NCBI GenBank assembly: GCA_963779225.1
Contig: CAVZWW010000001.1
Span: 542,921-606,920 of the forward strand
Direction: 5' to 3'
DNA: 64,000 nucleotides
Origin: an uncultured Bacteroidota bacterium
Lineage (GTDB): Bacteria > Bacteroidota > Ignavibacteria > UBA10030 > UBA6906
This document shows, one piece after another, positions 17,375 through 63,274 of the stretch (position 1 is the stretch's first letter; each line of letters begins with the position of its first letter). The position numbers were made by a program, and so were the translations under genes. Under the pieces are notes generated by a model that made no database searches, was not told the DNA's origin, and was given only the letters and a program-made list of their open reading frames with translations.

Positions 17375-17499
17375 CCCATTACCAACGCGGAGGTGATAAT
17401 TCGGTACTCAAAGTTACAGTGATATCCAACACCCAACATCCAACATCGTTGTATCCTAAACCACCTGTTCCTTCACACATCACCAGCAGAGAGGTGCAT

Positions 17500-44913: not shown

Positions 44914-44950
44914 GTGTCGCTCCGGATGGTTGGACTGTACAGTGACAGAA

Positions 44951-48296: not shown

Positions 48297-49192
48297 GCGA
48301 GCCGCACCCGCCGCAGATTCAGTTTTTTGACATCATAGGTGTTCAGGCCGCGCTTGATTGCTTCGCCGACGAATCCGGCATCGCCTGCACCGAGCCCGAA
48401 GAGCTCCAGGGCAACATAGTCAGCGGTCACCAGACAGGGGCTCATGATCAAGGTGCGGGTCTGCTTCACGTGGGCGAGGTTGCCTCCGACCGGTCCGTTG
48501 GCGGTGAGAATACGGTAGGCATCGATGATGGTGAGTGTCGGCAGGATGGTTCTGTCTATGTCCACCAGCTTCTGGGCAAAATTGTTGTGAATGTCACCCC
48601 GGTTTCCACCCATCACGCCCATCAGATTCTTCATTCCGAGCGTGACGCCGGACAGGGAATGGTGTTTTGCGATCGGGAGATTTATGACTTTGTCCGCTTC
48701 CAGGTAGTCCTTATAGATGGGCCATTCCTTGACCAGTTCCCCGTTGATCGCCTTGTTGACGAAACGGCTCTCACGCACCTGTGAAACATCGGCCCCCGCG
48801 TTCTTTGCCTTTTCTTCGATCTGGGAATTGGTGTAGCATCGGAGCGGGTTGTTGCACGTGCGGTCAAACACCTTCACGGTCTTCGCGCCGGCACCGAGGC
48901 ATGCCGTGACCACCGCGGCAACGAGCTCGGGATTCGTGTTTGCGGCATATTGCGGGGCACGGTCCCATCCCATGTTCGGCTTGACCACCACCACGTCGCC
49001 CCGGCTGATGAAGTGGGAGATGCCGCCCATCTCTTTGAGTGCTGCGGCAAGGAGCTGAGCCGGTTCTCCGTTTTCCACCCAGACGGCATGGGGCATCTGC
49101 GTCTGTGCAAGAAGCCGGTCCCATGCAGGGGACAGCAGGGAAGCCCCCAGGACGCCGGCGCCCGTGGTAACCAGAAAATCACGTCTGTTCAT
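48293..49192 (-). CDS. TAT-signal DUF362-family protein
   Basis: Twin-arginine signal MNRRDFLVTTGAGVLGASLLSPAW; body VVKPNMGWDRAPQYAANTNPELVAAVVTACLGAGAKTVKVFDRTCNNP matches the DUF362 pattern (…VxIKPN…). The track ORF extends to 49540, but the RR-motif Met at 49192 is the plausible start. Confidence 0.5.
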   Translation of the reverse strand: MNRRDFLVTTGAGVLGASLLSPAWDRLLAQTQMPHAVWVENGEPAQLLAAALKEMGGISHFISRGDVVVVKPNMGWDRAPQYAANTNPELVAAVVTACLGAGAKTVKVFDRTCNNPLRCYTNSQIEEKAKNAGADVSQVRESRFVNKAINGELVKEWPIYKDYLEADKVINLPIAKHHSLSGVTLGMKNLMGVMGGNRGDIHNNFAQKLVDIDRTILPTLTIIDAYRILTANGPVGGNLAHVKQTRTLIMSPCLVTADYVALELFGLGAGDAGFVGEAIKRGLNTYDVKKLNLRRVRLA

Positions 49193-49333
49193 AGAGTATC
49201 TCCCAAAGTGGCCCATTCTCCCATGCTCCATTGAGTATAGAAAAAAAATTACATAAAATACACCCGTTCTCCTCCCGGACCACACATCGCCACGAACGGA
49301 GATCCGATGAATCGTCCAAATCGCACACCAGAA

Positions 49334-50488
49334 ATGAATCGCCGCGAATTCTGCGCTCTGGTTGCCGGCGCAGGAGCAACGGCAGCCCTGGGCATTCAAT
49401 CGTTGCGCGCCGCACAGGAGCAGGTGCGGCCCCCTGAAAAACCTGGCACCAACCGGGCTGATGCGCTCAAGCACCCCCGGAAGCAGATCTCCATGCCGGG
49501 GAAGTATCCCGGCCGTGTCGCCCGTTCGGTGCATGAACACGCTCTTGTGAACAACACTCCGGACCCGGCCATCGCCGATGCATTGGTATCACACGCGCTT
49601 CTCGCTCTTACGGGTGCAGCGAATATCAACGAGGCCTGGCGCGAGTTCGTCTCTCCCGAAGACATTATCGGTCTGAAAGTGAACCCCGTGGCCGGCAAAC
49701 TCCTCAGCACGAGCCCGGAAATTGTGGCCGCCATTATCGGTCAGCTCGTGAAGGCAGGGATCCCGCGGAACCATCTGGTGATCTGGGATCGCCGGGAATT
49801 CGAGCTCCAGGAAACCGGATACACCGCGGAACGATTCCCGGGTATCAGGATCACGGGCACGGAACGGAAGGATGCCGCCGGATCGTTCACGGATGCGAAA
49901 GGGAAACTGTACGGGGAGGCGATGATCGACCGTGACTGGTACTACTGGGCGGATGTGGAAGAACAGTATGATGCGGAAACGATGCCGTATATGATCAATA
50001 GCGGGAAGTTTTCCTACTTCAGCCGCATTGTCACACAGGACGTGACGAAGATCGTCAATATTCCCATTCTCAAGAACGCCGGGGCATCGATTACGTTATG
50101 TCTCAAGAATCTTGCGTACGGCGCCATCAGCAACACCCAGCGGCTCCACAAACACCTCTGGTCGGAGACCACCGCGGAAGTGCCGGCGTTTCCGCCGCTG
50201 CGCGACAAGGTGGTGTTGAACATCGTGGACGGCATACGGGGGTGCTTCAACGGCGGGCCCGGAGCGAACCCGCAATTCTTCACCGACTACAACACCGTCC
50301 TTGCCGGCACCGACCCCGTTGCTGTCGACCGGATCGGGTATGATATTGTGCTGAAGAAGCGACTTGAAGAGAAAGTGCAGAAAGAAGAATCGCCGCGCGG
50401 GCGCCTTTTCCTTGACCTTGCTGCCGCCATGGGACTGGGTGAGGCGGATATTTTGCGGATACAGCTCACCACGGAAATCCTCTCATGA
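49334..50488 (+). CDS. TAT-signal DUF362-family protein (divergent paralog)
   Basis: MNRREFCALVAGAGATAALGIQSLRAAQ twin-Arg signal; IGLKVNPVAGKLLSTSPEIVAAIIGQLVKAGIPRNHLVIWDRREFE core paralogous to the 48293 gene. Confidence 0.5.
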   Translation: MNRREFCALVAGAGATAALGIQSLRAAQEQVRPPEKPGTNRADALKHPRKQISMPGKYPGRVARSVHEHALVNNTPDPAIADALVSHALLALTGAANINEAWREFVSPEDIIGLKVNPVAGKLLSTSPEIVAAIIGQLVKAGIPRNHLVIWDRREFELQETGYTAERFPGIRITGTERKDAAGSFTDAKGKLYGEAMIDRDWYYWADVEEQYDAETMPYMINSGKFSYFSRIVTQDVTKIVNIPILKNAGASITLCLKNLAYGAISNTQRLHKHLWSETTAEVPAFPPLRDKVVLNIVDGIRGCFNGGPGANPQFFTDYNTVLAGTDPVAVDRIGYDIVLKKRLEEKVQKEESPRGRLFLDLAAAMGLGEADILRIQLTTEILS

Positions 50489-51351
50489 TGAGATCGCTTG
50501 CGCTGCTGTTCATGGCTGTTTTTCAGCAGGGGGCCGATCCGGACCGGGTCAGCCTGCGCAGCGGTGATATCCCCGGATTGGATGTCACTCAGACGCAACG
50601 TTATGAAGGCGTGTCGCTGACGGGGCATATCAACGGCGGCGCCGAGCTGTACCGCGAGTACGGGTTTCGAACGCTCACGGTGCAGGAAGTAACTATTCGC
50701 GGCGGCGAAGAACTCACGATCGAATCGTACCGGATGACCGATCCGGCGGCGGCATTCGGCATTTTTTCGATCTCCCGTTCCGGCTGCGGGCCGGCCGACA
50801 CCGCATTCCTGGCGAGCTGCGGTTCGCCGTTTCAACTTCAGCTGGTGGCACACGACCTGTATGTGCGGATTCAAAACGGCAGCGGAACACCGGTCATGCA
50901 GGAGTCCAGCCGTATTCTTGCGCGCTGGATCGTTGGTCGCGCCGGACAGGATCTTCCCGTGTTGCCGCCCCGGTTCACCCACCCTCTTCTCCTGCCGTTT
51001 GTCCCCGGGGTTAAACGCATGGCAGGTCCTCTCGGCCTCCAGAACGGACTTCCGGACTGGGCTGAACCCTGCGAGGGTTTGCGGGCTTTTTCGGTGTTTG
51101 CGCTGCCGGCAGTCTTCGAAGGGCGGGAACTGTCGGTCCTGGTCTGGCGGTTTGGATCACCGGAGGATTGCGGGGTATTCCTGGGACGGATCGGGGCAGA
51201 GGAGCAGGGGGCAGATTTGATGGCGATACGGCGGGGAGGTGGGACCCTCTGGGTGAAACGTCAGGGTCCGGTGGAGTGCATCCTTGTGGAAACTGGTGAG
51301 GGAGGCCTTGAACCCGCGCTGCGGGAGGTTATCTTCGGACCGGAAAAGTAA
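50485..51351 (+). CDS. Hypothetical secreted protein translationally coupled to DUF362
   Basis: ATGA overlap with the upstream stop; N-terminal hydrophobic signal MMRSLALLFMAVFQQG; no known motifs. Confidence 0.35.
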   Translation: MMRSLALLFMAVFQQGADPDRVSLRSGDIPGLDVTQTQRYEGVSLTGHINGGAELYREYGFRTLTVQEVTIRGGEELTIESYRMTDPAAAFGIFSISRSGCGPADTAFLASCGSPFQLQLVAHDLYVRIQNGSGTPVMQESSRILARWIVGRAGQDLPVLPPRFTHPLLLPFVPGVKRMAGPLGLQNGLPDWAEPCEGLRAFSVFALPAVFEGRELSVLVWRFGSPEDCGVFLGRIGAEEQGADLMAIRRGGGTLWVKRQGPVECILVETGEGGLEPALREVIFGPEK

Positions 51352-52711
51352 TACCGTACTGTTTCATTTTGGCGAACAGCTGCCGGCGATGGATCTTGAG
51401 GAGTTCCGCGGCCCGGCTCCGGTTCCCGCCTGTTTGCTGCAATGCCCGAAGGATCAACTGTTTTTCCACGTCCTCGACGATGCCCTTCATCGGCATCCCC
51501 TCCTGCCAGAGAATGTTGCGCGGCAGCAGATCCCCCCCGGTGCGCAGCGTGAGAGGCAGACTGTCAAGCGTGATGACCTCCCCTCTGGCCATGACAATGG
51601 CGCGTTGAACAACATTCTCCAGTTCACGGACATTTCCCGGCCAGGAGTATTCCCGGAATTTCTGCATCACTTCATGGGATACCACCACCATCCGCCCGGG
51701 GGCATATTTGTACAGGAAGTGATCGACGAACACCGGGATATCTTCCGGATGCTCCCGAAGCGGCGGAACGTTGATATGAAGGATATTGAGCCGGTAGTAG
51801 AGATCTTCCCGGAAACGCCCTGCCCGTACTTCTCCTTCAAGGTCCTTGTTTGTTGCGGCTATCACGCGTACATCCACGACCAGAGTTGTCTTCCCGCCGA
51901 CCCGTTCCAGGGTCTTCTGCTGGAGGACCCGCAGGAGCTTGACCTGGAGGGAGGGGGTCATGGCATTCACTTCATCCAGAAACAATGTGCCCCCATCGGC
52001 CAATTCAAAACGGCCCTGCCGTTGTCCTACGGCTCCGGTGAAGGCGCCCCGCTCGTGTCCGAACATCTCGCTCTCCAGGAGAGTCTCGGGTAACGCACCA
52101 CAGTTGACTTTGATGAAGGGCCGGTCCTGGCGGAGGGAGTGGCGCTGCAGTGCATCGGCTATCAATTCCTTGCCCGTTCCGCTCTCCCCCTGGATGAGCA
52201 CCGTGGTGTCCGTCGGTGCCACCCGTCCGATGAGCTTGAAAATCTCTTGCATCTGACCGCTGCTGCCGATGATGCTCTTGTCCGGTGCTTCCTGGTTCTT
52301 CTGTGTGACCTGTGACCGCAGTTGTCTGACTTCCCCGAGCAGATCGTGGTACTGCAGGGAGCGGCGGATGATGAGCAGGAATTCGTCGAGTTCAAAAGGT
52401 TTCTCCAGATAATCATATGCCCCCGCCTTCATCGCTTCAATGGCGCGTTCGCTGGTGCCGTACGCCGTAAAGACGATCACCACTGTATCGGGGATTGACC
52501 GTTTGATTTCGCGCAACGCGGCGAGCCCGTCGAGTCCCGGGAGATTAATGTCCATCAGGACTACGGCGGGACGATGGTTCCGGGTAAGAGCCACTGCTGT
52601 CTCGCCGTCAGCCGCTTCGAGCATCGTGTATCCCTCCTCCCGAAGGAGCTCGAGGAGACTCTTGCGCATCGAAGGTTCATCGTCGGCAATAAGGATGGTA
52701 TGATGGTTCAT
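51329..52711 (-). CDS. Sigma54-dependent response regulator (NtrC family: REC-AAA+-HTH)
   Basis: REC domain ILIADDEPSMRKSL…; AAA+ sigma54-interaction domain GESGTGKELIADALQ, GAFTGA, ESEMFGHERGAF; C-terminal Fis-type HTH RSRAAELLKIHRRQLFAKMKQYGI. Confidence 0.9.
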   Translation of the reverse strand: MNHHTILIADDEPSMRKSLLELLREEGYTMLEAADGETAVALTRNHRPAVVLMDINLPGLDGLAALREIKRSIPDTVVIVFTAYGTSERAIEAMKAGAYDYLEKPFELDEFLLIIRRSLQYHDLLGEVRQLRSQVTQKNQEAPDKSIIGSSGQMQEIFKLIGRVAPTDTTVLIQGESGTGKELIADALQRHSLRQDRPFIKVNCGALPETLLESEMFGHERGAFTGAVGQRQGRFELADGGTLFLDEVNAMTPSLQVKLLRVLQQKTLERVGGKTTLVVDVRVIAATNKDLEGEVRAGRFREDLYYRLNILHINVPPLREHPEDIPVFVDHFLYKYAPGRMVVVSHEVMQKFREYSWPGNVRELENVVQRAIVMARGEVITLDSLPLTLRTGGDLLPRNILWQEGMPMKGIVEDVEKQLILRALQQTGGNRSRAAELLKIHRRQLFAKMKQYGITFPVRR

Positions 52712-54258
52712 GATGTACCGCGCATTTCCGGACCGATGGTGGGGATGTGAATGTGGCAGACTGTCCCCCGGCCGTCACGCGGGAGGAACTCTATTCTGCC
52801 GCCGTGTGTGCGGATAATTTCGTATGAAATGGAAAGTCCGAGACCTGCTCCGTGGGCTTTCGTGGAAAAGAACGGCTCGAAGATCCGGGGAAGTACTTCC
52901 GGTGGAATCCCGGTCCCGTCGTCCTCGATGGAAACGACCACCAGCTGGCGCTCCGCCTCAAATGCCGTGGCCACGGCAAGATGACCGCCCCCCGGCATCG
53001 CATCCAGCGCATTGGTGCAGATATTCAAGAAAACCTGTTCCATTGCCTGGGGATCCAGCGGGATGAGGGGTGCTTCAGGGGCGAAGGCGGTTTGCACGCG
53101 CACGCGTCGTGCCCGCGCCACGGGCTCCACAACCGTCAGTGTCCGCCGGAGAACGTGATGGACATCGGAGGGAATGGGGATGGTCGCTACCGGTTTTGAG
53201 AACGTCAGGAGCCGCTTCACGAGTTCCGACAGGCGGTCGATCTCGCCCACCACCACGGCCATGGCGTCCTCTGATACGACACTGCCTTTGTCTGCGGTGC
53301 CGGGTCTCTTGAGTTTCCGTTGCCACATCTGGATACGGGTCTTGATGACCGCCAGGGGGGTTTTTACTTCATGAGCCACACGCGCGATCAGTTTGCCGAG
53401 CGAGGCCATCTTGTCCTGCTGGTGGAGCTCCTGCTCAAGCTGTTCCCGTAAGTGTTGGTCTTCAGTCCGTGCCGCAACCATGTCATTGATTGCCAGCATG
53501 ATTACGCCGAAGACTCCACGCCGCTGCGGGAAGCGAAATGCCGTGTCTCGTCGCAGCGCGTCCAGACCGATGCGTATTTCTTCTGTCCGCTCCCGCAATC
53601 TCCAAGCAATCGCAATGACCACAATGAACCCGATAAGCGAAACAATAGCAGCGACAATGAGGACGCTCGTCAACCGCACGGTGGGGAGCAGACGTTCGAT
53701 GTGCACCCGTGCCCAGACGGCTCCCACGATCCGGCCACGAACCTCGATCGGGTCCGTCACCAGCGGAAAGGTGGCAGGATCAAACTGATGCATCTGAATG
53801 ATCTTTTGCTGCCGGGCGATCGACTGCCGTACCTGTTCGCGAATGATGTGAAAAGAGCGTGGAGGGGGACCGAAAGCCGGCTGGGGCGGGGGTGATGTGG
53901 GGAAGGCGTATCCGAGAAACTGATCCGCGTCGGCAATGTAAAATCCACCCTCCGTCCCCTGAAACAACATCAGTTCCCGGGTGGCAACGGCGGACAGCAG
54001 GGCATCCGCCCGCTTCTCCTCTTCCCGCGTCCAGGAGGTTCGCTGCAGGAATGTTGAGTGCCACAGACTGTCCATGAGTGCCCGTGCAGCCGTGTTGATT
54101 TCCGCCACCGCCGCTTCCGTCATGATCCGGTTGGAGGCAATCACTTCGTCAGCGGAACGCTGCAGCGTGGCATAGAAATAGACGGCGCACCCTGCAATAA
54201 CGACGGCAAATGCGGATGCCAGCATGAGCGCCTTGAATCGAAGACTGAGACGGTGCAT
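52708..54258 (-). CDS. Membrane sensor histidine kinase
   Basis: Two TM helices flanking a periplasmic region of about 230 aa; H-box ARVAHEVKTPLAVIKT; N/G boxes (ICTNALDAM, DDGTGIPPEVLPRIFEPFFSTK…GLGLSIS). Start 54258 chosen at MHRLSLRF. Confidence 0.8.
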   Translation of the reverse strand: MHRLSLRFKALMLASAFAVVIAGCAVYFYATLQRSADEVIASNRIMTEAAVAEINTAARALMDSLWHSTFLQRTSWTREEEKRADALLSAVATRELMLFQGTEGGFYIADADQFLGYAFPTSPPPQPAFGPPPRSFHIIREQVRQSIARQQKIIQMHQFDPATFPLVTDPIEVRGRIVGAVWARVHIERLLPTVRLTSVLIVAAIVSLIGFIVVIAIAWRLRERTEEIRIGLDALRRDTAFRFPQRRGVFGVIMLAINDMVAARTEDQHLREQLEQELHQQDKMASLGKLIARVAHEVKTPLAVIKTRIQMWQRKLKRPGTADKGSVVSEDAMAVVVGEIDRLSELVKRLLTFSKPVATIPIPSDVHHVLRRTLTVVEPVARARRVRVQTAFAPEAPLIPLDPQAMEQVFLNICTNALDAMPGGGHLAVATAFEAERQLVVVSIEDDGTGIPPEVLPRIFEPFFSTKAHGAGLGLSISYEIIRTHGGRIEFLPRDGRGTVCHIHIPTIGPEMRGTS

Positions 54259-54416
54259 GATGTAAGATACGGTGGGAGAGAGGACTAGTGCAAGTGGGCG
54301 GTGTTCGAAGAGCAACCTCAGTGAGGCAGCAGGGCGTGCGGATGCTGCACAGGCCCGGTGTTGTAAATGGAACATGATGCGCGTATATTTGTCTACACAT
54401 TGACGGGGCACATTGC

Positions 54417-56291
54417 ATGCAGGCGCTTCCTGAGATCGTCAGGTTCTTAAGCGGCATTGAACTGTTCACGGATCTGGAAGAGAACGAACAGAGTCAGCTG
54501 GCGGGTCTTGTACACGAACAGCACCTGCCGGCCGGGGCACTGGTCTTCGCGGAAAACACTCCCCGGCAGGGTCTGATCCTGATTCAGACCGGGGAGATCG
54601 AACTCTTCAAGCGGACGCCGTTCGGCGAAGAAAAACGTCTGGCCTACTTCCGCCAGGGAGATTTTCTCGGCGAAGGGGCACTGATGGATGAGGATCCTCA
54701 TTCCACATCGGCACGGGCACTCCATCCCGCAGTCATCCTTCTGATCAGCAGCGGGGACTTCTCGGCCCTGGCGCGCCGTAGCCCCACCCTTGGTGCGAAG
54801 GTGCTCTCCCGCATCGCCCGCGTCATCGTCCGGCGCATGCGCTCGACCACATCCAGAGTGATTGACGAAACCGCACAATATGTTTCCGGCCGGACTCGCA
54901 GGGAGCATGACCTCCTCGGTGACCGTGACGTGCCCCACGAGTTTTATTACGGCATACAAACACTCCGGGCAATCGAAAACTTTCCTATCAGCGGCATCAC
55001 GCTGGAGCTCTATCCGGCGCTGATTGCCGGGCTGGCGATCGTGAAAATGGCCGCAGCGCGCGCCAATGTGGATCTCGGGCTGATCACACCACCTGTCGGA
55101 GACGCCATCGGCAGGGCGTGCGGTGAAATCCTCCAGGGAAAGCTGCACAACCAGTTCGTGGTGGATATGATTCAGGGGGGAGCCGGGACTTCCACCAACA
55201 TGAATGCCAATGAAGTCATTGCCAACCGGGCGCTCGAATTGCTGGGGCACGAGAGAGGGGAGTACCGGTTCTGCCACCCGAACAATGACGTCAACTGCTC
55301 GCAGTCCACGAACGACGCCTATCCCACGGCATTGAAGATTGCGATTATCATGAGTAACGGGAAGCTCATTGAAGGACTCGAACAATTGATCGACTCGTTC
55401 CGTGTCAAGGCCCGGGAGTTTGCCCATGTCATAAAGATGGGGCGGACCCAGCTGCAGGATGCCGTGCCGATGACGCTGGGCCAGAGTTTTGAGGCGTATG
55501 CCGCAACCCTTGCCGAAGAAGTGGAACGGCTTGAACAGAACGCACGGCTCTTCCTCGAGGTTAATCTGGGCGGAACGGCGATCGGCACCGGCATTAACGC
55601 CGATCCTCTCTACAGCGAAAAGGCGGTCGGGCACCTGCGGTCGATTTCCGGGTTGGACGTGGTGCTCGCCCCGAACCTGGTGGAGGCGACGCAGGACACA
55701 GGCGCATTCGTCATCTATTCTTCGGCAGTGAAACGACTCGCGGTAAAGCTCTCGAAGATTTGCAACGACCTCAGGCTGCTTTCCTCCGGACCGCGTGCCG
55801 GTCTTTTTGAGATCAACCTTCCACCGATGCAGCCCGGTTCCTCCATCATGCCCGGGAAAGTCAACCCTGTTATCCCCGAAGTCATCAACCAGATCGCGTT
55901 CAAGGTGATCGGCAATGACCTGACGGTGACACTCGGCGCGGAAGCGGGCCAGCTGGAATTGAACGTGATGGAGCCGGTGATCGCGGAGTGCATATTTGAG
56001 TCGATCGAGATGCTCAAGAACGGCATGGCCACGCTCAAACACCGGTGCATCGACGGGATCACGGCAAACGAGAAACGGTGCCGTCTGATGGTGGAGAGGA
56101 GCATCGGCCTGGTGACGGCCCTGAACCCCGTGCTGGGTTATGAAACATGTACCGCGCTCGCCAGGGATGCGCTGGATCAGGAGAGAAGCGTATATGAGCT
56201 GGTGCTTGAACGCAACCTGCTCACACAGGAGGAGCTGGATCGTCTGATGGCGCCGGAATCCATGATCGCTCCCCAGCGGGCAAAACGCTAG
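54417..56291 (+). CDS. Cyclic-nucleotide-binding (CAP-effector) domain fused to aspartate ammonia-lyase (class II fumarase/aspartase family)
   Basis: Residues about 10-150: cNMP-binding fold with FRQGDFLGEGALMDEDPHSTSARAL (G-E…R-A phosphate-binding cassette). Residues about 165-624: aspartase, with EHDLLGDRDVPHEFYYGIQTLRAIENF, QGGAGTSTNMNANEVIANRALELLG, CSQSTNDAYPTALKIA, and the lyase signature GSSIMPGKVNPV. Confidence 0.8.
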   Translation: MQALPEIVRFLSGIELFTDLEENEQSQLAGLVHEQHLPAGALVFAENTPRQGLILIQTGEIELFKRTPFGEEKRLAYFRQGDFLGEGALMDEDPHSTSARALHPAVILLISSGDFSALARRSPTLGAKVLSRIARVIVRRMRSTTSRVIDETAQYVSGRTRREHDLLGDRDVPHEFYYGIQTLRAIENFPISGITLELYPALIAGLAIVKMAAARANVDLGLITPPVGDAIGRACGEILQGKLHNQFVVDMIQGGAGTSTNMNANEVIANRALELLGHERGEYRFCHPNNDVNCSQSTNDAYPTALKIAIIMSNGKLIEGLEQLIDSFRVKAREFAHVIKMGRTQLQDAVPMTLGQSFEAYAATLAEEVERLEQNARLFLEVNLGGTAIGTGINADPLYSEKAVGHLRSISGLDVVLAPNLVEATQDTGAFVIYSSAVKRLAVKLSKICNDLRLLSSGPRAGLFEINLPPMQPGSSIMPGKVNPVIPEVINQIAFKVIGNDLTVTLGAEAGQLELNVMEPVIAECIFESIEMLKNGMATLKHRCIDGITANEKRCRLMVERSIGLVTALNPVLGYETCTALARDALDQERSVYELVLERNLLTQEELDRLMAPESMIAPQRAKR

Positions 56292-56360
56292 AGCTGTTCC
56301 AGCCGGATCGGTGAATACCGGATAGATAACGAAACCTTGTACACGTACAGAAGGTTGAAG

Positions 56361-57848
56361 ATGCGGCAACATACGGCTACTCTCCTCCTTGCTTTTGCCT
56401 TCTCCTCCAACGTCCTTGTAGCGCAGCTCTCCACACCGCTTGAAGTCAAGGACTTCGTCAGGGCGACGGAACACGCGGAGATGCTGGAGTTCCTGCGGGC
56501 GGCTGACGGGGTTTCGGACAGAATCTCGCTGGAGACGGCAGGGAAATCGGCGTTGGGGCGGGAGATCCCTCTGGTCATCCTGCGCCACCCGTCAGATACA
56601 AACGGATCCCCGCGGCTGCGCGTGCTGCTTTTCTGCCAGCAGCACGGCAACGAGCCCTCGGGGAAGGAAGCGGCGTTGATGTTGATAGCCCGCGCGGCAT
56701 CCGGAATGCTGGACACGCTCCTGGCGCGGATGGACCTGTTGGTGATTCCTTCCGTCAATCCGGACGGAAATGAAGCGGGCAAACGTCAGAATGGAAACGG
56801 TGCCGACCTCAACCGTGACCACCTGCTCCTCTCACAGCCCGAGACACAGGTCGTTCATGCGGTATTCAACCGGTGGAAACCTGAAGTGACCCTCGATGTG
56901 CATGAGTTCGGGGCCCTCGGAAGGGAATGGATGGAAGCCGGGTATGTTCGGGCCATGGATGAACAGTTCGGCACCCCCACGAATCCGAACGTTCCCCAAT
57001 CTCTTGTCCGGTTCGGTCTCGAGCAGATGTTCCCCGTTCTGGATGCGGAGCTTCGGGAACAGGGAGTGCGGTTTTTCAATTATATCATCATCGACGGGCC
57101 GCGGGATAACCCGCGTCATAGCACCACCGCCATCAATGACGGCCGGCAGAGCTTCGCAATTCTGAACACGTTTTCGTTTATTCTTGAAGGGCGGAACGGC
57201 AGGACCATGCACGAGGATCTGGCCCGTCGCACGAAGGGACAGGCCGTCGCGATCACGGCATTTCTCAGATTCGTGGCGAGCCGGGCCGGGGAAATCCGCG
57301 TCCTGGTCCGGGAAGAACGCTTCAAGAATCTTGCCCGGAAGGACTCCGTTGCGCTGGTGATGGATCACGTACATGACGGATCGGTGATCGCCATCCCCGT
57401 GAGAACAGTCCCCGGTGGCAATGACTCGACGGTGTCCGTGCCTTACCGGCCGGTCGTGAAGACCTTTGTGAAGGTTGGACGTCCGCAAGGGTATGTGCTC
57501 CCGCAAACGTTGACAGGCGTGCTGGAGATCCTGGAGCGTCACGGGGTTGAATTCCGGATGTTGCAGCGCGACACCACACTGGAAGTGGAAACCACCGTTA
57601 TTACGCGGGTGGATACGGTGGAGCGCGAAGGAATGAATACTCTCCTTCCTTGGTACACGGTCCGGAAAGCACAACGGCAGTTCCAGATCGGGGATGTTTT
57701 TGTTCCCCTTGCACAGCTCCATTCCACGATGCTGGTGATCGCCCTTGAACCGGCCTCTATGTGGGGTCTGGTCCAGGAAAGCCTGTTCACGCCGTGGCGT
57801 GCTGCAGGCCTTGAATATCCGGTGTACCGTCTGCCGTTGCAGGAGTAA
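56361..57848 (+). CDS. Secreted M14-family zinc carboxypeptidase
   Basis: Signal peptide MRQHTATLLLAFAFSSNVLVAQ; Zn-binding motif LLFCQQHGNEPSG (HxxE). Confidence 0.7.
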   Translation: MRQHTATLLLAFAFSSNVLVAQLSTPLEVKDFVRATEHAEMLEFLRAADGVSDRISLETAGKSALGREIPLVILRHPSDTNGSPRLRVLLFCQQHGNEPSGKEAALMLIARAASGMLDTLLARMDLLVIPSVNPDGNEAGKRQNGNGADLNRDHLLLSQPETQVVHAVFNRWKPEVTLDVHEFGALGREWMEAGYVRAMDEQFGTPTNPNVPQSLVRFGLEQMFPVLDAELREQGVRFFNYIIIDGPRDNPRHSTTAINDGRQSFAILNTFSFILEGRNGRTMHEDLARRTKGQAVAITAFLRFVASRAGEIRVLVREERFKNLARKDSVALVMDHVHDGSVIAIPVRTVPGGNDSTVSVPYRPVVKTFVKVGRPQGYVLPQTLTGVLEILERHGVEFRMLQRDTTLEVETTVITRVDTVEREGMNTLLPWYTVRKAQRQFQIGDVFVPLAQLHSTMLVIALEPASMWGLVQESLFTPWRAAGLEYPVYRLPLQE

Positions 57849-58008
57849 GCCGCATCGCGTTCCCGTACTAGTCGTACGCCTCCCGTTGTCGCCGGGTGGG
57901 CGGGGCCTGATGCAATCGAGCTTCCTCTACGACTCATGGAAGCCGGGACGCCCGGTTGTCCGGGCCGGCGGATCAGTTAATTCTTCTTTCCCTCTCTCTG
58001 GAGATCAC

Positions 58009-59238
58009 ATGCGCGTTCCTGTGCTGGTTATCATCATGTATATCTTCGTTGTATCACAGAGTATTGCCTGTACATCGGCGGTCATCTCCGGCAAAGCGAC
58101 AAAGGACGGGCGTCCTTTGCTCTGGAAGCAGCGCGACACAGGTACCCTGGAAAACAAGCTGGTGTCTTCCCGCGGAGAGCGGTACCGGTTTCTTGGTGTT
58201 CATGATCTGACCGATTCCGCGAACGCAGAGTGTTTCATGGGGAGCAATGAAGTCGGGTTCAGCATCATCAACACCGCCTCGTACAACCTCTCGTATGAAA
58301 AGTATCAGGGGAAGATGGACGAAGAAGGTGTGCTGATGAAGCAGGCCCTGGGGACGTGCAGGACCCTGGCGGATTTTGAGCAATTGCTGATTGATACACG
58401 TGGCAAACGGGGCGTCGAAGCGAACTTCGGTGTGATTGACGCGGCAGGGGGGGCGGCATATTACGAAACGGACCCGTACGCGTTCAAGAAGTTTGATGCC
58501 AATGATCCTGTTGCCGCCCCGCGCGGATATCTGCTGCGCACGAATTTCTCCGCATCCGGAGCTCCTGAACACGGCCAGGGATATATCCGTTTTCAGACCG
58601 CAACCGATCTCTTCCAGTGGGCATATCTCGGAGAGGGATTGTCCGTGGATTTTCTCCTGCTCGAGGGAACAGTCTGTTTCACGCACTCGCTTGTCGGGAC
58701 CAATCTGGCGAAGGACAATCTTCCGGAGTCGGAGGACGTTCGCACAATGGTGAATTTTGCCGATTTCATCCCGCGGTATTCGACGTCCGCGTCTATGGTT
58801 ATTCAGGGAGTGAAGCCTGATGAGGATGTTGCGCTAACCACGTTATGGATCGTTCTCGGCTCACCGCTGACGACGCCTGTCGTTCCGGTGTGGGTGAAGT
58901 ACGCGGAAGCGGTCCCCTCAATCTGGATTGCCAGGGGAGCCGAGCCGGCGCAGGTCAACGATGTGTCCCTCAAGATCAAAGCGCGTTGCTTTCCCCTGAA
59001 AACCTCTGAAGGAAAGTACTACCTCGACCTGGCGAAGGTGCTGAACAGGCAGGGAACGGGAACGGTCCAGCAGCTGCGCGACACGGACGAGAAGATCCTC
59101 GGGCTCGGCCATCAGGCGGTCGAATCCTTCCGCAAGAAGATGCCGTCCGTGTCTGATGTGCGGGTGCTGTATGCGGGCGTGGAGAAACTGGTGGTGGCCT
59201 ATTTCAGCCGGTTCGGATATCCGGTGGTACATCCATAG
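58009..59238 (+). CDS. Secreted N-terminal-nucleophile (Ntn) hydrolase with catalytic Cys after signal cleavage (C69/C45-like peptidase/acylase)
   Basis: Signal peptide MRVPVLVIIMYIFVVSQSIA | CTSAVISGKATKDGRPLLWKQRD. Cys1 then basic residues and Asp is characteristic of Ntn cysteine hydrolases. Confidence 0.45.
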   Translation: MRVPVLVIIMYIFVVSQSIACTSAVISGKATKDGRPLLWKQRDTGTLENKLVSSRGERYRFLGVHDLTDSANAECFMGSNEVGFSIINTASYNLSYEKYQGKMDEEGVLMKQALGTCRTLADFEQLLIDTRGKRGVEANFGVIDAAGGAAYYETDPYAFKKFDANDPVAAPRGYLLRTNFSASGAPEHGQGYIRFQTATDLFQWAYLGEGLSVDFLLLEGTVCFTHSLVGTNLAKDNLPESEDVRTMVNFADFIPRYSTSASMVIQGVKPDEDVALTTLWIVLGSPLTTPVVPVWVKYAEAVPSIWIARGAEPAQVNDVSLKIKARCFPLKTSEGKYYLDLAKVLNRQGTGTVQQLRDTDEKILGLGHQAVESFRKKMPSVSDVRVLYAGVEKLVVAYFSRFGYPVVHP

Positions 59239-59288: not shown

Positions 59289-61922
59289 TTATTCCCGTTC
59301 AGCACCGCTGGCGGGCGGACGTATGATCTGGCCGAAAAAGACCGCGTTGAGAAGGATTTTTTCCGAGCCGAGCCAGAATCCCCTGAAGGAAGGGTTGTCG
59401 GTGATTTGTACGACGCGTCCGGAGCCGAGCCCGCTTACCACCACAGCCGCACTGTTCCCCAGGGCCTTCTGATGCTCCTTTGCCATGTACCCGCTGACTA
59501 GCAGTGAGCCGGTGTATACCACCGGTGTCGCATAGGGATCGCGGGAAGGTTCCAGCGCAAGTGTGTTCACACGGCAGAGGTGAAGCCGGTCACCCTCAAT
59601 ACCGTAGCAGATCGGATGTGTTGAATCGAAGGATGCCTCCACAATGGCCCCGTTGATCTGCTGCGCGGCTTCTGCGTCTCTTCTGCTTTCGAAGGGGCGC
59701 CGGGCAACGCCGCTATCCATGCGCGCCTCCGCGGCCGGCCGGAATCGCAACGTGGCGAGATTCTTCCGGGCAAGCCACTCACCCGCGTTCTCCAGGCTCA
59801 CAACCGTCCCGCCTTTCTCCAGCCAGATCCGTATGGCGGCCACTCCGGAAGAATCCACCTGTGTGTAGTTGCCGCCGGGCATGATAATCACCGAATATCT
59901 GTCGAGGGCTGTCCGGTTCAATTGTGCCGGCTCGACCAGTGTCACCGTCATACCGATGCGCTGATCCAGCAGGTGCCACACCTCGCCGGCATCGTTGCTC
60001 CGTACACCGGGCCCTGCTACCAGAAGGACGCGGGGTAGCGCAACGGGCCGCATCGCATCACTTCCGAGATCAACTCCCTCCTCGGCCTGACCTGTGCCGA
60101 GGCCGTACGTCATGATACCTTCGGCGCGGATTGCACGCTCGACAATTGTGCGAATGGTATCACTCTTCTGCGGCTGGATGCCGAGGGGAATGATGATGGT
60201 GCCGAAACCGAAGCGGACCGGCGCCGGGATTCCCTCGACCTTCGCCAAAAACCCCCGTGAAGCGCTCCGCGCGCGAACACCTGCAGCAAGAAGTTGGTGC
60301 AGGAGGCGTGGTGCGTTCTGCTGTGACCAGGGGAATGCATACGCAACCGGATCCGCGGGCCCCCGGTAGAATCCCGTTGCCGGAAGTTGGCGGGACACCT
60401 CCTTGCCGCGGATCTCTGCCGGGATGGCGTTCAGTCCGGCATAGGGAACACCGTATGCAAGGGGGAGGGTCCATGAGGAAATGTCGTAGAATACACTGTC
60501 TGTGAATTGCGTGCGTTTCTCGAACAATGACGTCAGGAGTCGATACTGCGGCTGGACCGCGTCGAGAACAAAAGCCGAACCGGGGAGATAGCGTGTCCCG
60601 GCGGCGTCATACGGTAGGGCGAGTTCATGGACGATGATGTGATGCCTGCGGAGGAGGTCAACCAGGAGGCGGCCGCGCACCGGGTCAACGGCAGAGCCGA
60701 AGACATATCCGCGGATGGAGGCGCGCGACGCTTCATGGACGGCCTCCCGGAAAAACTCCTGCTGGTAGGTAAGGAAATCGATACGATGCCCGGACACCGC
60801 ATCCAGCGCTGTCAGCGCGGACGTCACGTGATTACGGATTGCATCGGGGAATTCGAGCACACCATCCGTCTGTTCCTGTCGATGTCCTCTGACGCTGGCC
60901 TGTTCAAAGAGGATGCCGACCGAACCGGTGACATCGGTGTAGGAAGATCCTTTGCCTATGAAAAAGTCGTCGAAAATTTCCCTGGAAAAATACAGCGATC
61001 CGATTCTGTCCAGTGCCGCCGCAAAATACCGGCTCAGGAGAGCGGTGAGCTTCTGGTTGCCAGCGGTGATCTGAGGGTGGATGGCAGAGGGTTTCCCCGG
61101 CTGGAAGAAGTAGGTTGAGTTGGTCCCCATTTCATGGAAGTCGAGCAGGAGGTTGGGCATCCAGCGGTAATACTGCTCAAGCCGGGCGCGGGATTCCGGA
61201 TGCACCAGCGGAAAATAGTCTCTGTTGAGATCAAACCAGTAATGATTGGTACGGCCGGAGGGCCAGGGTTCCTGATGCTCCCGCGTGGCCGGGTCAGCCA
61301 CCGGTTGTGCCCCCCGGTTGCCGTTCACCCAGGTGACGAACCGGTCGTAGCCGTCCGGATTGATGCACGGGTCGATCAGGATGACGGTGTTCCGGAGTTG
61401 TTCTTCTATGGCCGGCCCCTGGGCTGCTGCAAGGAAGTACGCCACCAGAGGGGTGGCATTTGCCCCGCTTGCTTCGTTGCCATGGACGCTGAATCCCATC
61501 CAGAGAACAGCTGGCAGCACAGCGGGATCGGTCTTCTGTCCTGCCGCGGGGTTACCGAGGGCGAGATGTTGAGTCCGGATCTTCTCGAGCTGTAGGTGAT
61601 TATCCGGATGCGTGACGGTCAGGAGTACCAGCGCACGCTGCTCATAAGTCCGTCCGTATTCCTGCAACGTCAAACGGTCGGACGCAGCATCCAGCGCCTT
61701 CAGATATTCCAGCAACTGATCATGCCGGATGTGCCAGTCGCCCACCGGGAAACCAAAAAACGATTCCGGCGTCGGAATCACAGGATCATATTGTATCCCC
61801 GCGGGCAGACCCCGGGGGGGCAGCTCTTGAGGAATCGACCCCGGAGGCTGATTCTGAGCGGAAACAGGGTATGCGGCGATCAGAAGAGCCGGAATCAGAA
61901 ACAGAAGGCGAGATGCGTGCAT
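59289..61922 (-). CDS. Large secreted M14-like peptidase
   Basis: Signal peptide MHASRLLFLIPALLIAAYPVSAQ; Zn site VLWMGFSVHGNEASGANATPLVAYF (HxxE); about 875 aa, typical of Bacteroidota-type multi-domain M14 proteins. Confidence 0.6.
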   Translation of the reverse strand: MHASRLLFLIPALLIAAYPVSAQNQPPGSIPQELPPRGLPAGIQYDPVIPTPESFFGFPVGDWHIRHDQLLEYLKALDAASDRLTLQEYGRTYEQRALVLLTVTHPDNHLQLEKIRTQHLALGNPAAGQKTDPAVLPAVLWMGFSVHGNEASGANATPLVAYFLAAAQGPAIEEQLRNTVILIDPCINPDGYDRFVTWVNGNRGAQPVADPATREHQEPWPSGRTNHYWFDLNRDYFPLVHPESRARLEQYYRWMPNLLLDFHEMGTNSTYFFQPGKPSAIHPQITAGNQKLTALLSRYFAAALDRIGSLYFSREIFDDFFIGKGSSYTDVTGSVGILFEQASVRGHRQEQTDGVLEFPDAIRNHVTSALTALDAVSGHRIDFLTYQQEFFREAVHEASRASIRGYVFGSAVDPVRGRLLVDLLRRHHIIVHELALPYDAAGTRYLPGSAFVLDAVQPQYRLLTSLFEKRTQFTDSVFYDISSWTLPLAYGVPYAGLNAIPAEIRGKEVSRQLPATGFYRGPADPVAYAFPWSQQNAPRLLHQLLAAGVRARSASRGFLAKVEGIPAPVRFGFGTIIIPLGIQPQKSDTIRTIVERAIRAEGIMTYGLGTGQAEEGVDLGSDAMRPVALPRVLLVAGPGVRSNDAGEVWHLLDQRIGMTVTLVEPAQLNRTALDRYSVIIMPGGNYTQVDSSGVAAIRIWLEKGGTVVSLENAGEWLARKNLATLRFRPAAEARMDSGVARRPFESRRDAEAAQQINGAIVEASFDSTHPICYGIEGDRLHLCRVNTLALEPSRDPYATPVVYTGSLLVSGYMAKEHQKALGNSAAVVVSGLGSGRVVQITDNPSFRGFWLGSEKILLNAVFFGQIIRPPASGAERE

Positions 61923-61975
61923 GGTGGGGAGACCCGGGTCAGTGTGTGGTCGGTTGGATCCGCTAAGGAGTTCCG

Positions 61976-63274
61976 TCATCTGGCGAGCAGCAACGGGTGT
62001 GTGACGATCCGGCCGTCTGCCGCGAGGCGGCAGTAATAGACGCCGCTGGGTTGTCTCTCCGCGTGCCAGACGACCTCATGTATCCCGGGTGATTGAAGGC
62101 CCGAAACCAGCACTGCTACCTCCTGGCCGAGGAGATTATAGATCGTGATGTGTGTTGAGGTAGTGCGGTCGAGTTCAAAACGAATCGTCGTTGCGGGATT
62201 AAACGGATTTGGATAGTTCTGGAACAGCCGGAAATGGAAGTCCTGTGCAGGTTGAACCGTGGTAGGAGTTTCGGGGAATGTGAGACCGACGGCGGTGGCC
62301 AGAATTCCCCAATGCTCTTTGGTGTCCCGCAGTCCAAGATACTTCTGTTCGAGGTGCAGGAAGCGTCCATTGGCGCTCGTTGCGGAGATTCCGCATGGAG
62401 AGGAGCTGCCATTGATGAGCCGTCCCTGAGTGCTGGTTGTCGCGATCAGGCGTGTCCAGTCGGTATCCACATGGGCAACCTTGAATTTCAGCGATGGATC
62501 TACGAGAAGGAGATTGTCACGCAGCGCGAGGAGATCGTCGCCGCCGGGCGGCGGTGCTTTTTGCGTACCGTTGCTCATGATGATGTCGGGGTCCCCCTGC
62601 AGCTGCGCAAAGCCGTGAGGCTGGAGGAAGACACAGCTGTCGATGCACGTCAAAGCGGCCTCGGTAGATTTCTGGAACGTACCGTCCACGACGTGTGCCT
62701 GATCGGATTGTCGATACGGGTCATTGCTGGTGCCGCAAGCGGTAGTTGTGCCGCTGCACGGGGACGGGAGGGCGTTGTTGCACCGGTGGGTGCCGCTGAG
62801 AAAAAAGGCCCGGGCTTGCACGGTGAAAAAGACATACCATCCCTGATATCCGGTCTTTGAGTCGTAAAGCGGATGCGGGACCTGTATGATCAGCCGTGGC
62901 CTGACGGGAGAGACGGCAAAGACATATGTGCCCCAGTGGTTGCCGGAAGATGGGCTCTTTTCCAGGACGTAGTATTTTCGTTCAATCAGTGTGGAGGTGT
63001 CGGTGTAGTCCAGAAGGAGATAGCCGAGGGGGGGGGCCTGTGCCGCTGCCAGTGAAATGTCCCCCTGCAGGATTGTCTCCACCATGGTTCGCCACTGGGA
63101 TTGCTGGGTTGTTCCGGGTGGTTGATACTGTCCGGTTCCGGACCCCGCGGGTATGGCGGCGATGAGGCTGTCCACATGTGAGGTGAGGTCCCCGCGAACG
63201 GTGGTCTGCGCATTTGTCGCAGAGGCGCAGAGGAGGATAGTGAGGAGGAGGCGATAGGTCATTGTGAGATTCAT
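61976..63274 (-). CDS. T9SS-secreted protein of unknown function
   Basis: Signal peptide MNLTMTYRLLLTILLCASATNAQ; C-terminal sorting domain FRLFQNYPNPFNPATTIRFELD…GVYYCRLAADGRIV. Confidence 0.45.
   Translation of the reverse strand: MNLTMTYRLLLTILLCASATNAQTTVRGDLTSHVDSLIAAIPAGSGTGQYQPPGTTQQSQWRTMVETILQGDISLAAAQAPPLGYLLLDYTDTSTLIERKYYVLEKSPSSGNHWGTYVFAVSPVRPRLIIQVPHPLYDSKTGYQGWYVFFTVQARAFFLSGTHRCNNALPSPCSGTTTACGTSNDPYRQSDQAHVVDGTFQKSTEAALTCIDSCVFLQPHGFAQLQGDPDIIMSNGTQKAPPPGGDDLLALRDNLLLVDPSLKFKVAHVDTDWTRLIATTSTQGRLINGSSSPCGISATSANGRFLHLEQKYLGLRDTKEHWGILATAVGLTFPETPTTVQPAQDFHFRLFQNYPNPFNPATTIRFELDRTTSTHITIYNLLGQEVAVLVSGLQSPGIHEVVWHAERQPSGVYYCRLAADGRIVTHPLLLAR

Follow-up and report, generated by a model that had tools for sequence, protein, structure and literature searches.

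The CNB–aspartase fusion is a real and widely conserved bacterial gene, in which a CRP-type effector (CNB) domain is joined directly to a complete class-II aspartase, and on balance its product is probably a ligand-gated aspartase. In the window, by which we mean the whole 64,000-nucleotide stretch of DNA that was analysed, the complete fusion gene occupies positions 54417..56291 on the forward strand, which also carries the parts of the gene and the candidate promoter described below. Open reading frame, domain and homologue evidence agree on one ATG-started frame of 624 amino acids plus stop, without internal stop or frameshift. The initial annotation had read it as a cyclic-nucleotide-binding domain fused to aspartase, and this is borne out by the single frame together with its domain matches: a Pfam search of the window protein returned cNMP_binding, Lyase_1 and FumaraseC_C in this order, each above its curated cutoff, and all motifs quoted in that annotation are present.

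Proteins of about 620 amino acids with the same three domains were found in at least 189 species-level genomes. The hosts include Ignavibacteriota, Bacteroidales, Zixibacteria, Calditrichota, Kapabacteria and others, and the fusion is frequent among Bacteroidales MAGs. Database entries label the family members plainly as ‘aspartate ammonia-lyase’, and no close unfused relatives of the N-terminal module were found. The arrangement had been thought unusual and uncharacterised. We likewise found no publication describing a CNB–aspartase fusion in the searchable literature, but the number of host genomes makes this a large family and not a rarity.

Residues 161–624 (54897..56288) constitute the aspartate ammonia-lyase module, identified by the TIGR00839 model, solved structures and catalytic motifs. 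Judged by these motifs, it is a complete, normal class-II aspartate ammonia-lyase that is predicted to be catalytically intact. The TIGR00839 aspA equivalog model matched residues 161–622 with 708.5 bits (cutoff 681.2) and NF008909 scored 740 bits against 510, while the fumC_II model remained below its own cutoff. In Pfam, Lyase_1 covers residues 170–499 (E 2.3e-95) and FumaraseC_C residues 565–617 (E 2.5e-19). The best solved match was the AspA 6wng (E 3e-194), followed by 1jsw and 1j3u; with E-values of 3e-194 to 2e-153 for AspA structures and of about 1e-107 to 1e-111 for FumC, the module is closer to aspartase. The SS loop, G474-SSIMPGKVNPV485 (55836..55871), a loop that is mobile and catalytic in the fumarase/aspartase superfamily, is invariant in the alignment, and a motif count located GSSxMPxKxNP, GT-S-T-NMN, SQSTND and GRTQLQDA in the window protein. 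Catalytic and substrate motifs occur in 71–80 of 81 family members, and the shortfalls are contig-truncated reading frames. The description of this part as a typical AspA is therefore upheld by both the TIGR00839 score and the motifs.

The lyase module aligns end to end with AspA/AspB from E. coli (1JSW), Bacillus YM55-1 (1J3U) and the Bacteroidota type (6WNG). Solved AspAs are about 470 amino acids long and start at the ‘(I/R)-E-x-D-L-L-G’ strand, whereas the fusion adds a CRP-type sensor of 160 residues before this strand. His164 (in E-H-D) is invariant and specific to the fusion; its counterpart is S or Q in 6wng and 3oce, and E or K in the E. coli and Bacillus enzymes. The allostery of E. 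coli AspA, which responds to L-Asp and Mg2+, is not known to involve a CRP-type domain.

The N-module, residues 1–147 (54417..54857), was recognised as a CRP-type effector domain by PF00027, AlphaFold (AF2), Foldseek and hhalign. Pfam cNMP_binding (PF00027) matches residues 35–121 at 64.7 bits (E 7.8e-18), above the model's gathering score of 27.5. The AF2 model (pLDDT 87.9, pTM 0.80) shows canonical CNB topology, with helix A, an 8-stranded β-roll, a cassette helix, helix B and a long helix C. Its best Foldseek matches are CNB domains of the CRP family and of PKG (rmsd 1.8–3 Å, probability 1.00), and its nearest structural neighbours are cAMP-bound CRP-family structures. Members of that family (E. 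coli CRP, T. thermophilus CAP 4EV0, M. tuberculosis CRP, GlxR and Clr) share the fold at an rmsd of 1.8–2.3 Å.

The likeness to CRP extends beyond the β-roll. In hhalign, the N-module matched E. coli CRP with 97.7% probability over 137 columns, through the C-helix into the hinge. The amphipathic C-helix, residues 123–147 (54783..54857), is supported by hhalign, AF2 and family conservation, and amphipathic periodicity spans residues 125–155. R139-R140, each invariant (81/81), align with CRP R122-R123, and T144-T145 with T127-S128. A helix-turn-helix DNA-binding domain was not detected with the Pfam and NCBI models, which assign residues 161–624 to the lyase. Because the CRP match runs through the C-helix into the hinge, the aspartase takes the place of the CRP DNA-binding domain. 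Common to both proteins are the G-E pair, the Ser after the clamp, the C-helix R-R, the T127/S128 polar pair and the similarity at the hinge. The fusion differs from CRP in carrying an enzyme instead of a helix-turn-helix, His95 for Arg82, and Arg50 where canonical binders have Gly. Weaker sequence relatives of the N-module, the EAL phosphodiesterase Bd1971 (6HQ3) and a CNB–diguanylate cyclase (5H5O), are also CNB–enzyme fusions; their partners are signalling enzymes of c-di-GMP turnover, whereas the partner here is a lyase of central metabolism.

Much of the ligand pocket follows the CRP pattern. The phosphate-binding-cassette equivalent, F83-LGEGALMDEDP-H95-STSA-R100 (54663..54716), was placed by alignments, hhalign and family conservation. 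Its Gly-Glu pair (G85 in 77/81 and E86 in 81/81 sequences), of the kind that binds the ribose 2'-OH, aligns with CRP G71 and E72. Five or six of the seven cAMP-contact positions of CRP are kept (G85, E86, S96, R140 and the polar pair 144–146), the position equivalent to PKA Ala202 (position 88) is A, S, V or T across the family, and G87 (79/81), P94 (80/81) and T97 (77/81) are strongly conserved. Apart from the clamp residue, the cNMP-type signature F-x-G-E-G-A...P-x-S-T-x-A is complete.

The phosphate clamp itself has been rebuilt. The His95 codon (CAT, 54699..54701) lies at the position of CRP Arg82 and PKA Arg209, and all PDB alignments, as well as hhalign, pair His95 with the clamping Arg. 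The residue is His in 79 of the 81 sequences, Gln in the remaining two and Arg in none; divergent fragments have Tyr, Gln or His, and never Arg. The initial annotation had called the cassette canonical, a description that does not survive the replacement of the phosphate-clamping Arg by a near-invariant His. On the β2–β3 loop, E46-N47-x-P-R50 (54552..54566), alignments place Arg50 at the position of PKA Gly169. It is Arg in 76/81 sequences and E, Q or N in a Bacteroidales subclade. Two features of canonical receptors, the cassette Arg and the β2–β3 Gly, are hence both missing from the window protein, and the pocket is surrounded by numerous conserved basic residues (R50, R100, R139 and R140). 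Canonical cAMP/cGMP receptors follow the cassette motif FGE[LIV]AL..[PV]R[ANQV], and among canonical binders PKA Gly169 and the Arg of the cassette have evolved together (PMC2246266). The key contact to the phosphate is made by Arg209, which is more diagnostic of cNMP binding than any other residue, and CNB families without it in general have ligands of another kind, or no ligand (PMC2246266).

The two modules meet in the junction A153-Q-Y-x-S-G-R-T-R-x-E-H-D165 (54873..54911), defined by conservation and by hhalign to the CRP hinge. It is the most conserved stretch of the N-terminal region: Q154, Y155, S157, G158, T160, R161, E163, H164 and D165 are each conserved in 80–81 of 81 sequences. 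The junction aligns with the CRP hinge and runs straight into the first aspartase β-strand, and aspartase alignments begin at RREHDLLG. In the full-length AlphaFold model (pLDDT 64, pTM 0.48, residues 141–193 below 50), the modules were not placed relative to each other, which is why transmission through the junction is purely something we infer.

The order of parts, from β-roll pocket to dimerising C-helix, hinge and first aspartase β-strand, without a flexible linker, suggests how a ligand-gated aspartase might work. A small molecule would bind in the β-roll pocket and, as happens in CRP, shift helices B and C; this shift would pass via the Q-Y-x-S-G-x-T-R-x-E-H-D junction into the aspartase N-terminal domain, and the activity of the tetramer would change, for example by SS-loop closure or altered subunit packing. 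In such a tetramer, the N-modules would be expected to pair by their C-helices into two CRP-like dimers, one at either end of the aspartase. The net effect would be to set the flux from Asp to fumarate and NH4+ during peptide and amino-acid catabolism. Control of the enzyme by a second messenger at the protein level had been proposed in the initial annotation; direct control is the most reasonable reading, but cAMP/cGMP is only one candidate for the ligand, because the clamping Arg is His95.

CNB control of an enzyme has a precedent in the mycobacterial acetyltransferases Rv0998 and MSMEG_5458, whose cassette is canonical and binds cAMP. Like the fusion, these proteins combine an N-terminal CNB domain with a catalytic domain, and cAMP activates them via the CNB domain (PMC5861322). 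They differ in their GNAT catalytic fold and oligomeric state, and the comparison made here is at the level of the CNB fold. Several observations speak against a ligand-gated aspartase. The most diagnostic cNMP residue, the clamping Arg, is absent, Arg50 is not universal, as the Bacteroidales subclade shows, and no signalling gene is a conserved neighbour. In addition, Bacteroides is reported to be without endogenous cAMP (PMC12078602), and Bacteroidales MAGs often carry the fusion.

The ligand of such an enzyme is probably nucleotide-like, as the ribose Glu, the Ser after the clamp, the small residue at the Ala202 position and the T127/S128-type pair are all kept in the sequence. Classical 3',5'-cAMP or cGMP, with a protonated His95, Arg50 or both as the phosphate contact, is a possible ligand at most, and one that we consider somewhat improbable, because the clamp has been rebuilt with His95 for Arg and, usually, Arg50 on the β2–β3 loop. 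The retained cAMP-contact positions and the cAMP-bound CRPs as nearest structures argue for it, as does the small residue at position 88: in the regulatory subunit of trypanosomatid PKA, a Glu at the Ala202 position excludes the phosphate (PMC10959531), whereas the A, S, V or T of the fusion could still let it fit. Against it, Arg was never seen at the clamp position in the 81 sequences or the divergent fragments, the Tyr or Gln of divergent members cannot be positively charged, and families that lack this key phosphate contact mostly bind different ligands, if any (PMC2246266). The fusion gene has no linked cyclase, and the reported lack of endogenous cAMP in Bacteroides (PMC12078602) counts against this ligand too. 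Gating by cAMP or cGMP is a special case of a ligand-gated aspartase, and was the specific version put forward in the initial annotation.

More tentatively, and with some doubt, the N-module may represent a new subclass of CNB receptor, with His95 and a relocated Arg, which binds a ligand other than cAMP or cGMP and directly gates the aspartase. If so, the aspartate-to-fumarate/ammonia branch of anaerobic peptide catabolism in FCB-group lineages would be under a previously unrecognised metabolite or messenger control.

A pocket adapted to something other than a cyclic nucleotide is unlikely; candidates would be a nucleoside or non-cyclic nucleotide (such as AMP, IMP or adenosine), a dicarboxylate or amino acid connected with the reaction (2-oxoglutarate, fumarate or aspartate) or, least likely, heme. 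Known relatives and the conserved basic residues near the pocket favour this view. CooA, a CRP/FNR-family protein that serves as a heme/CO sensor, has a His in the structural place of Arg209, as the fusion has His95, and this His of CooA is a heme ligand; in CprK, Asn92 is the residue that binds chlorophenolacetate, and NtcA responds to nitrogen (PMC2246266). The trypanosomatid PKA regulatory subunit is a CNB receptor that also lacks the cassette Arg; polar residues take its place, Ala202 has become Glu, and the cassette binds nucleoside ribose, with nanomolar affinity for inosine, guanosine and adenosine (PMC10959531). The fusion nevertheless keeps the rest of the cNMP-type signature, unlike CooA and FNR-type cassettes, and lacks the Glu that marks the trypanosomatid nucleoside site. 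The CooA cassette is otherwise degenerate and has a second axial ligand. In the fusion, neither Cys nor a second axial ligand lies near His95, and Gln replaces the His in some members, both of which speak against heme.

Two specific site types were considered in this connection. A nucleoside site of the trypanosomatid type is ruled out by the absence of the diagnostic Ala202-to-Glu change. A CooA-like heme site is unlikely, given a cassette that is otherwise canonical and a His that is Gln or Tyr in some members.

Selection on the two modules bears on a further reading, in which the N-module works without any ligand and survives as a relic for oligomerisation, stability or localisation only, a ‘pseudo-receptor’ like the CNB homology domains of KCNH channels and PDZ-GEF. 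We regard this as quite improbable. Loss of the key Arg would fit it, as would PDZ-GEF, in which this position is Met or His and the cassette is distorted, and whose structure was obtained ligand-free (PMC2246266). The N-module also evolves faster, with a median identity to the window protein of 46%, compared with 75% for the lyase. However, both modules are under purifying selection: measured against a 94%-identical relative, dN/dS was 0.094 in the N-module and 0.059 in the lyase module. Moreover, the near-invariant residues go beyond the hydrophobic core; they line the pocket (E86, G87, P94, H95 and T97) or form the C-helix Arg pair, and the replacement residue is itself a conserved His, which would not be expected of a dead site.

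An artefact, in which a frameshift, a mis-assembly or an internal start had turned a separate CNB protein and an ordinary aspartase into an apparent fusion, is effectively refuted already and vanishingly improbable: one related locus (L064) has a frame that stops right at the junction and a few database fragments of the family appear chimeric, but the frame in the window is continuous, one and the same architecture recurs in each of the 120 best database matches and in some 80 independent assemblies that cover several phyla, and the residues of the junction are nearly invariant. Virtually every complete related locus has a single frame of about 613–721 amino acids. An internal start yielding two proteins is ruled out by this continuity, by the absence of a Met at the start of the lyase module and by the poor conservation of the nearest internal Met, M141, which lies within the C-helix and is Ile or Leu in 7/81 homologues. 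A long antisense frame of 713 amino acids had no Pfam match.

Aspartases are homotetramers that reversibly deaminate L-aspartate to fumarate and ammonia. The enzyme stands at a junction of carbon and nitrogen metabolism: its fumarate enters anaerobic respiration and the TCA cycle, and its reaction frees ammonia from amino acids. Most of what is known of aspartase regulation comes from E. coli, at the level of transcription and of Asp/Mg2+ allostery, and the fusion family would be a hard-wired receptor–enzyme form of aspartase control. Of the host groups, Ignavibacteriota, Bacteroidales, Zixibacteria and Calditrichota are abundant in sediments, digesters and guts, and their small-molecule signalling is poorly known. 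Fumarate absorbance would offer a simple read-out for de-orphaning a CNB domain without the canonical Arg, with a bearing on the wider question of what non-canonical CNB domains sense. Aspartases are in industrial use, and a ligand-switchable one could serve biocatalysis.

The gene neighbourhood was compared across 80 related loci. A divergent sigma-54 NtrC-type pair next to the gene had been taken as a sign of a nitrogen-linked role, an argument that loses its footing here: this HK/RR pair is absent beside the fusion in 80/80 related loci, even in that of the 94%-identical relative, and in one locus (L001) a TrpB-like gene lies at its position. Sigma-54 control was rejected for the gene itself, since the sole TGGCAC-N5-TTGCW-like site nearby (54406–54421) has two mismatches and overlaps the ATG; such sites occur at chance frequency (24 found, 28.9 expected). 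De novo clustering of flanking reading frames gave no cluster present in more than 12 of the 80 loci and hence no conserved operon partner such as a cyclase, phosphodiesterase or transporter, and no cyclase, phosphodiesterase or other signalling gene was a conserved neighbour among these loci. For a riboswitch or other upstream RNA element, no Rfam or tRNA matches were obtained in the window.

A weak candidate for a housekeeping promoter, TTGTAA-17 nt-TATATT (54361..54391; 9/12 match), lies 26 nt upstream of the ATG, and its pattern was found twice, with 0.8 expected. A well-placed copy of TAnnTTTG at 54384–54391 overlaps it; this Bacteroidetes-type motif is no more frequent in the window than chance would give (8 found, 10.4 expected), and the site was kept as a candidate only. 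Peptidase genes recur near the fusion, with Trypsin_2 in 9 loci, S8 in 7 and S46 in 5, and the window itself contains two M14 genes and one C45-like gene.

At 54417..56291 (+) the window encodes one uninterrupted ORF, which begins with ATG and is 624 aa long. Pfam matches place cNMP_binding (PF00027; residues 35–121; E = 7.8e-18; 64.7 bits, gathering score 27.5) ahead of Lyase_1 (PF00206; residues 170–499; E = 2.3e-95) and FumaraseC_C (PF10415; residues 565–617). Residues 161–622 score 708.5 bits with TIGR00839, the NCBIfam aspA equivalog (cutoff 681.2), and the NCBIfam fumarase C models stay far under their cutoffs. The initial annotation had read this protein as a cyclic-nucleotide-binding (CNB) domain fused to aspartase, and the domain search bears this out. 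No frameshift splits the gene; the lyase module starts without a Met, and at the closest internal one, M141, 7 of 81 sequences (the window protein and its relatives at 80 loci) have Ile or Leu instead. Compared with the nearest locus, L001, from an Ignavibacteriota MAG (94% identity), dN/dS is 0.094 for residues 1–158 and 0.059 for residues 159–624 (dS ~0.36). A 713-aa antisense ORF (54447–56588, minus strand) spans essentially the entire gene and exceeds its length; because it has no Pfam match and the plus frame is under strong purifying selection, it is probably a GC-rich shadow ORF, which could mislead gene callers.

The CNB-aspartase is a genuine fusion that recurs in other genomes. All three Pfam domains are present in each of the 120 best hits from a collection of 5.8 billion proteins (69–100% identity, about 616–646 aa), and a scan with the N-terminal module, at one genome per species, found relatives encoded in at least 189 genomes, from which 80 loci were kept for comparison. 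These come from Ignavibacteriota (including MAGs assigned to Melioribacter and Ignavibacterium), Bacteroidales and other Bacteroidota, Zixibacteria, Calditrichota, Kapabacteria and Rhodothermaceae, with a few from MAGs labelled Acidobacteriota or Bacillota. Where the source gives a name, the relatives are called just ‘aspartate ammonia-lyase’. Searches with the N-module returned no close unfused relatives: the hits are pieces of this fusion, after which identity falls to ~27%, in stand-alone or multi-CNB proteins. At one locus (L064:9623–10666) the ORF ends exactly at the domain junction (‘...SGRTRWS*’); the gene may be naturally split there, it may be a pseudogene, or the assembly may be wrong.

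Aspartase is a textbook enzyme, and the lyase module is, judged by its motifs and matches, an ordinary, intact one, in line with the ‘otherwise typical AspA’ first described. Among solved structures it matches 6wng best, an unfused AspA of 475 aa (E = 3e-194), followed by the E. coli (1jsw, 3.5e-160) and Bacillus (1j3u, 2e-153) enzymes; fumarase structures match more weakly (about 1e-107 to 1e-111). No variation is seen in the SS loop GSSIMPGKVNPV or in the other signature motifs.

Modelled alone (pLDDT 87.9, pTM 0.80), the N-module has a bona fide CNB fold, with helix A, eight strands, the cassette helix (86–89), helix B (112–121) and helix C (123–147) in canonical order. The nearest solved structures are cAMP-binding effector domains of the CRP family, among them Thermus thermophilus CAP (r.m.s.d. 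1.8 Å, 29–30% identity), Mycobacterium tuberculosis CRP, GlxR and Clr; the CNB domains of PKG rank high too. Profile alignment with hhalign to E. coli CRP gave a probability of 97.7% over 137 columns. It pairs G85 and E86 with G71 and E72 of CRP, H95 with R82, S96 with S83, R100 with R87, R139-R140 with R122-R123 and T144-T145 with T127-S128. The segment A153-Q-Y-V-S-G-R-T falls on the CRP hinge, A135-F-L-D-V-T-G-R-I, and the aspartase alignments start directly after it, at R-R-E-H-D-L-L-G. In architectural terms, the alignments place the aspartase where CRP has its winged-helix DNA-binding domain, joined at the hinge.

Within the N-terminal region, conservation peaks at the junction: Q154, Y155, S157, G158, T160, R161, E163, H164 and D165 are each kept in 80–81 of 81 sequences. 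It is preceded by an amphipathic C-helix, hydrophobic at 129/130, 133, 136/137, 141, 148/149 and 155. His164 sets the family apart from solved aspartases, with Ser aligned in 6wng and Gln in 3oce; the E. coli and Bacillus enzymes have Glu and Lys there. Conservation of this kind is expected if the junction couples the two domains rigidly, and not if it only tethers them. Inter-domain geometry is not resolved in the AlphaFold full-length model (pLDDT 64, pTM 0.48, residues 141–193 below 50), probably owing to a shallow alignment and an obligate tetramer.

The canonical CNB cassette reads FGE[LIV]AL[LIMV]X[PV]R209[ANQV], where Arg209 coordinates the cyclic phosphate and co-evolves with Gly169 of the β2–β3 loop (Kannan et al., 2007; PMC2246266). 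The initial annotation called the N-terminal cassette canonical and CAP-type; the fold and most signature residues agree, but both of these positions differ. All printed HMMER alignments with solved CNB domains set His95 against the cassette Arg (‘pRsas’, ‘pRtat’), in agreement with hhalign, and position 95 is His in 79 and Gln in 2 of the 81 sequences, never Arg. In fragments of more distant fusions the residue is His, Tyr or Gln, and unfused CNB proteins from the same search keep the canonical P-R-S-A. The Gly169 position is Arg50 in 76/81, inside the motif E-N-x-P-R. The remaining cassette is well kept (F83 80/81, G85 77/81, E86 81/81, G87 79/81, P94 80/81, S96 67/81, T97 77/81, A99 77/81, R100 74/81), and the residue at 88, the counterpart of PKA Ala202, is small throughout (A, S, V or T). 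In trypanosomatid PKA-R, Arg loss together with an Ala202-to-Glu change, which would clash with phosphate, produced a nucleoside-binding ‘ribose-binding cassette’ (PMC10959531); the second change is missing from the fusion family. Since the rest of the signature is also conserved, the pocket looks like a nucleotide pocket with a rebuilt phosphate clamp, not a dead or wholly re-purposed one, and Arg50 may swing into the phosphate position as a ‘relocated arginine’. In a Bacteroidales subclade (L035, L040, L053, L055, L059), residue 50 is E, Q or N and Lys51 follows; a second subclade, L066 and L071, from MAGs labelled Bacillota and Syntrophomonadaceae, combines Gln95 with Asn85. Both may represent natural variation in specificity. 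Two divergent fusion fragments, P0210 and P0227, carry Tyr at 95, one also with Asp for Glu86, which suggests a second, more distant subfamily.

In CRP, ligand binding re-orients the B and C helices. We consider it reasonably probable that the CNB module confers ligand-gated allostery on the aspartase: the architecture and its conservation, the conserved pocket and junction and the intact catalytic module are shown, and the individual steps are inferred. A small ligand would occupy the β-roll pocket and re-orient helices B and C in a dimer paired through its C-helices; the junction would pass this movement on to the aspartase N-terminal domain, tuning the activity of the tetramer. Within this ligand-gated reading, cAMP or cGMP is a tentative candidate, and the reported lack of endogenous cAMP in Bacteroides (PMC12078602) cautions against assuming cAMP family-wide. 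Somewhat less likely is a different ligand, such as a nucleoside, a mononucleotide or a dicarboxylate; heme is very improbable. A ligand-independent structural role for the N-module we regard as unlikely. That the fusion is an artefact is barely credible; related loci encode it as one ORF of about 613–721 aa wherever the contig is complete.

Other CNB–enzyme fusions are known, for example the cAMP-activated acetyltransferases Rv0998 and MSMEG_5458 (PMC5861322) and CNB-linked c-di-GMP enzymes found among the PDB hits of the N-module. A lyase partner goes unmentioned in a 30-family census of 7,696 CNB proteins (Kannan et al., PMC2246266), and full-text searches of the openly accessible literature, pairing aspartase or aspartate ammonia-lyase with CNB, cNMP or Ignavibacteria, found no description of a CNB–aspartase fusion. 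The arrangement, visible in databases with its unusual His/Arg50 cassette, is thus uncharacterised, as first supposed. Though not revolutionary, this receptor-enzyme is widespread and lends itself to clean tests, and its ligand could point to signalling that has gone unrecognised in the FCB group.

The fusion gene neighbourhood is not conserved, the most widespread neighbour family reaching 12 of 80 loci. Upstream and divergent lie an NtrC-type sigma-54 activator (response regulator) and a histidine kinase (listed at 52708–54411, minus strand), whose GTG start is 5 nt from the fusion ATG; its first 51 codons do not look like part of a gene, and translation probably starts at the Met near 54258. 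The two genes overlap by 4 nt (52708–52711) and hence form an operon. This pair had suggested a nitrogen-linked role, which gene order does not sustain: it adjoins the fusion in none of the related loci. A sigma-54-like match overlaps the fusion start codon at chance frequency, and sigma-54 control was rejected. A promoter candidate, sigma-70-like or TAnnTTTG, at 54361–54391 has weak statistical support. The pair belongs to a ~9 kb block (45299–54258), with DUF6599, two DUF362, multi-[4Fe-4S] and transglutaminase-like proteins further upstream, between the fusion and a TrpB-like PLP enzyme gene (43549–44979). Because the TrpB-like gene lies immediately upstream of the fusion in L001, the block seems to have been inserted or rearranged.

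Past the 3′ end of the fusion gene, and on its strand, come an M14 carboxypeptidase (56337–57848), with no terminator-like site found in between, and a ~411-aa protein (58003–59238) with a hydrophobic leader and then ‘C-T-S-A-V-I-S-G-K’, like the start of a Cys N-terminal-nucleophile hydrolase. The latter has no Pfam or PDB match, its sole hit being a sub-threshold C45_proenzyme (28.9 bits, cutoff 85); L001, L002 and L004 keep the gene just 3′ of their fusion genes. A second M14 and a T9SS-sorted protein follow on the minus strand. Together, the two M14 proteins and the two with C-terminal T9SS sorting domains (56337–57848 (+), 59289–61979 (−), 61976–63370 (−), 17344–19377 (+)) suggest a lifestyle based on secreted peptidases, as is typical of the FCB group. 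The T9SS-sorted proteins and the 94% identity to L001 assign the window to an FCB-group bacterium, most likely one of the Ignavibacteriota. Peptidases recur beside the fusion in subsets of loci (Trypsin_2 in 9, S8 in 7, S46 in 5; M14 and the C45-like gene in the window and close relatives), which is weakly consistent with the fusion acting in the breakdown of peptides and amino acids. The 64-kb window holds no tRNA genes or Rfam families at gathering threshold. Unrelated to the fusion, it also carries an AddAB/AdnAB-like pair of UvrD-like helicase and PD-(D/E)XK nuclease genes (10130–16047 (+)) and an RtcB RNA ligase gene (2865–4298 (+)).
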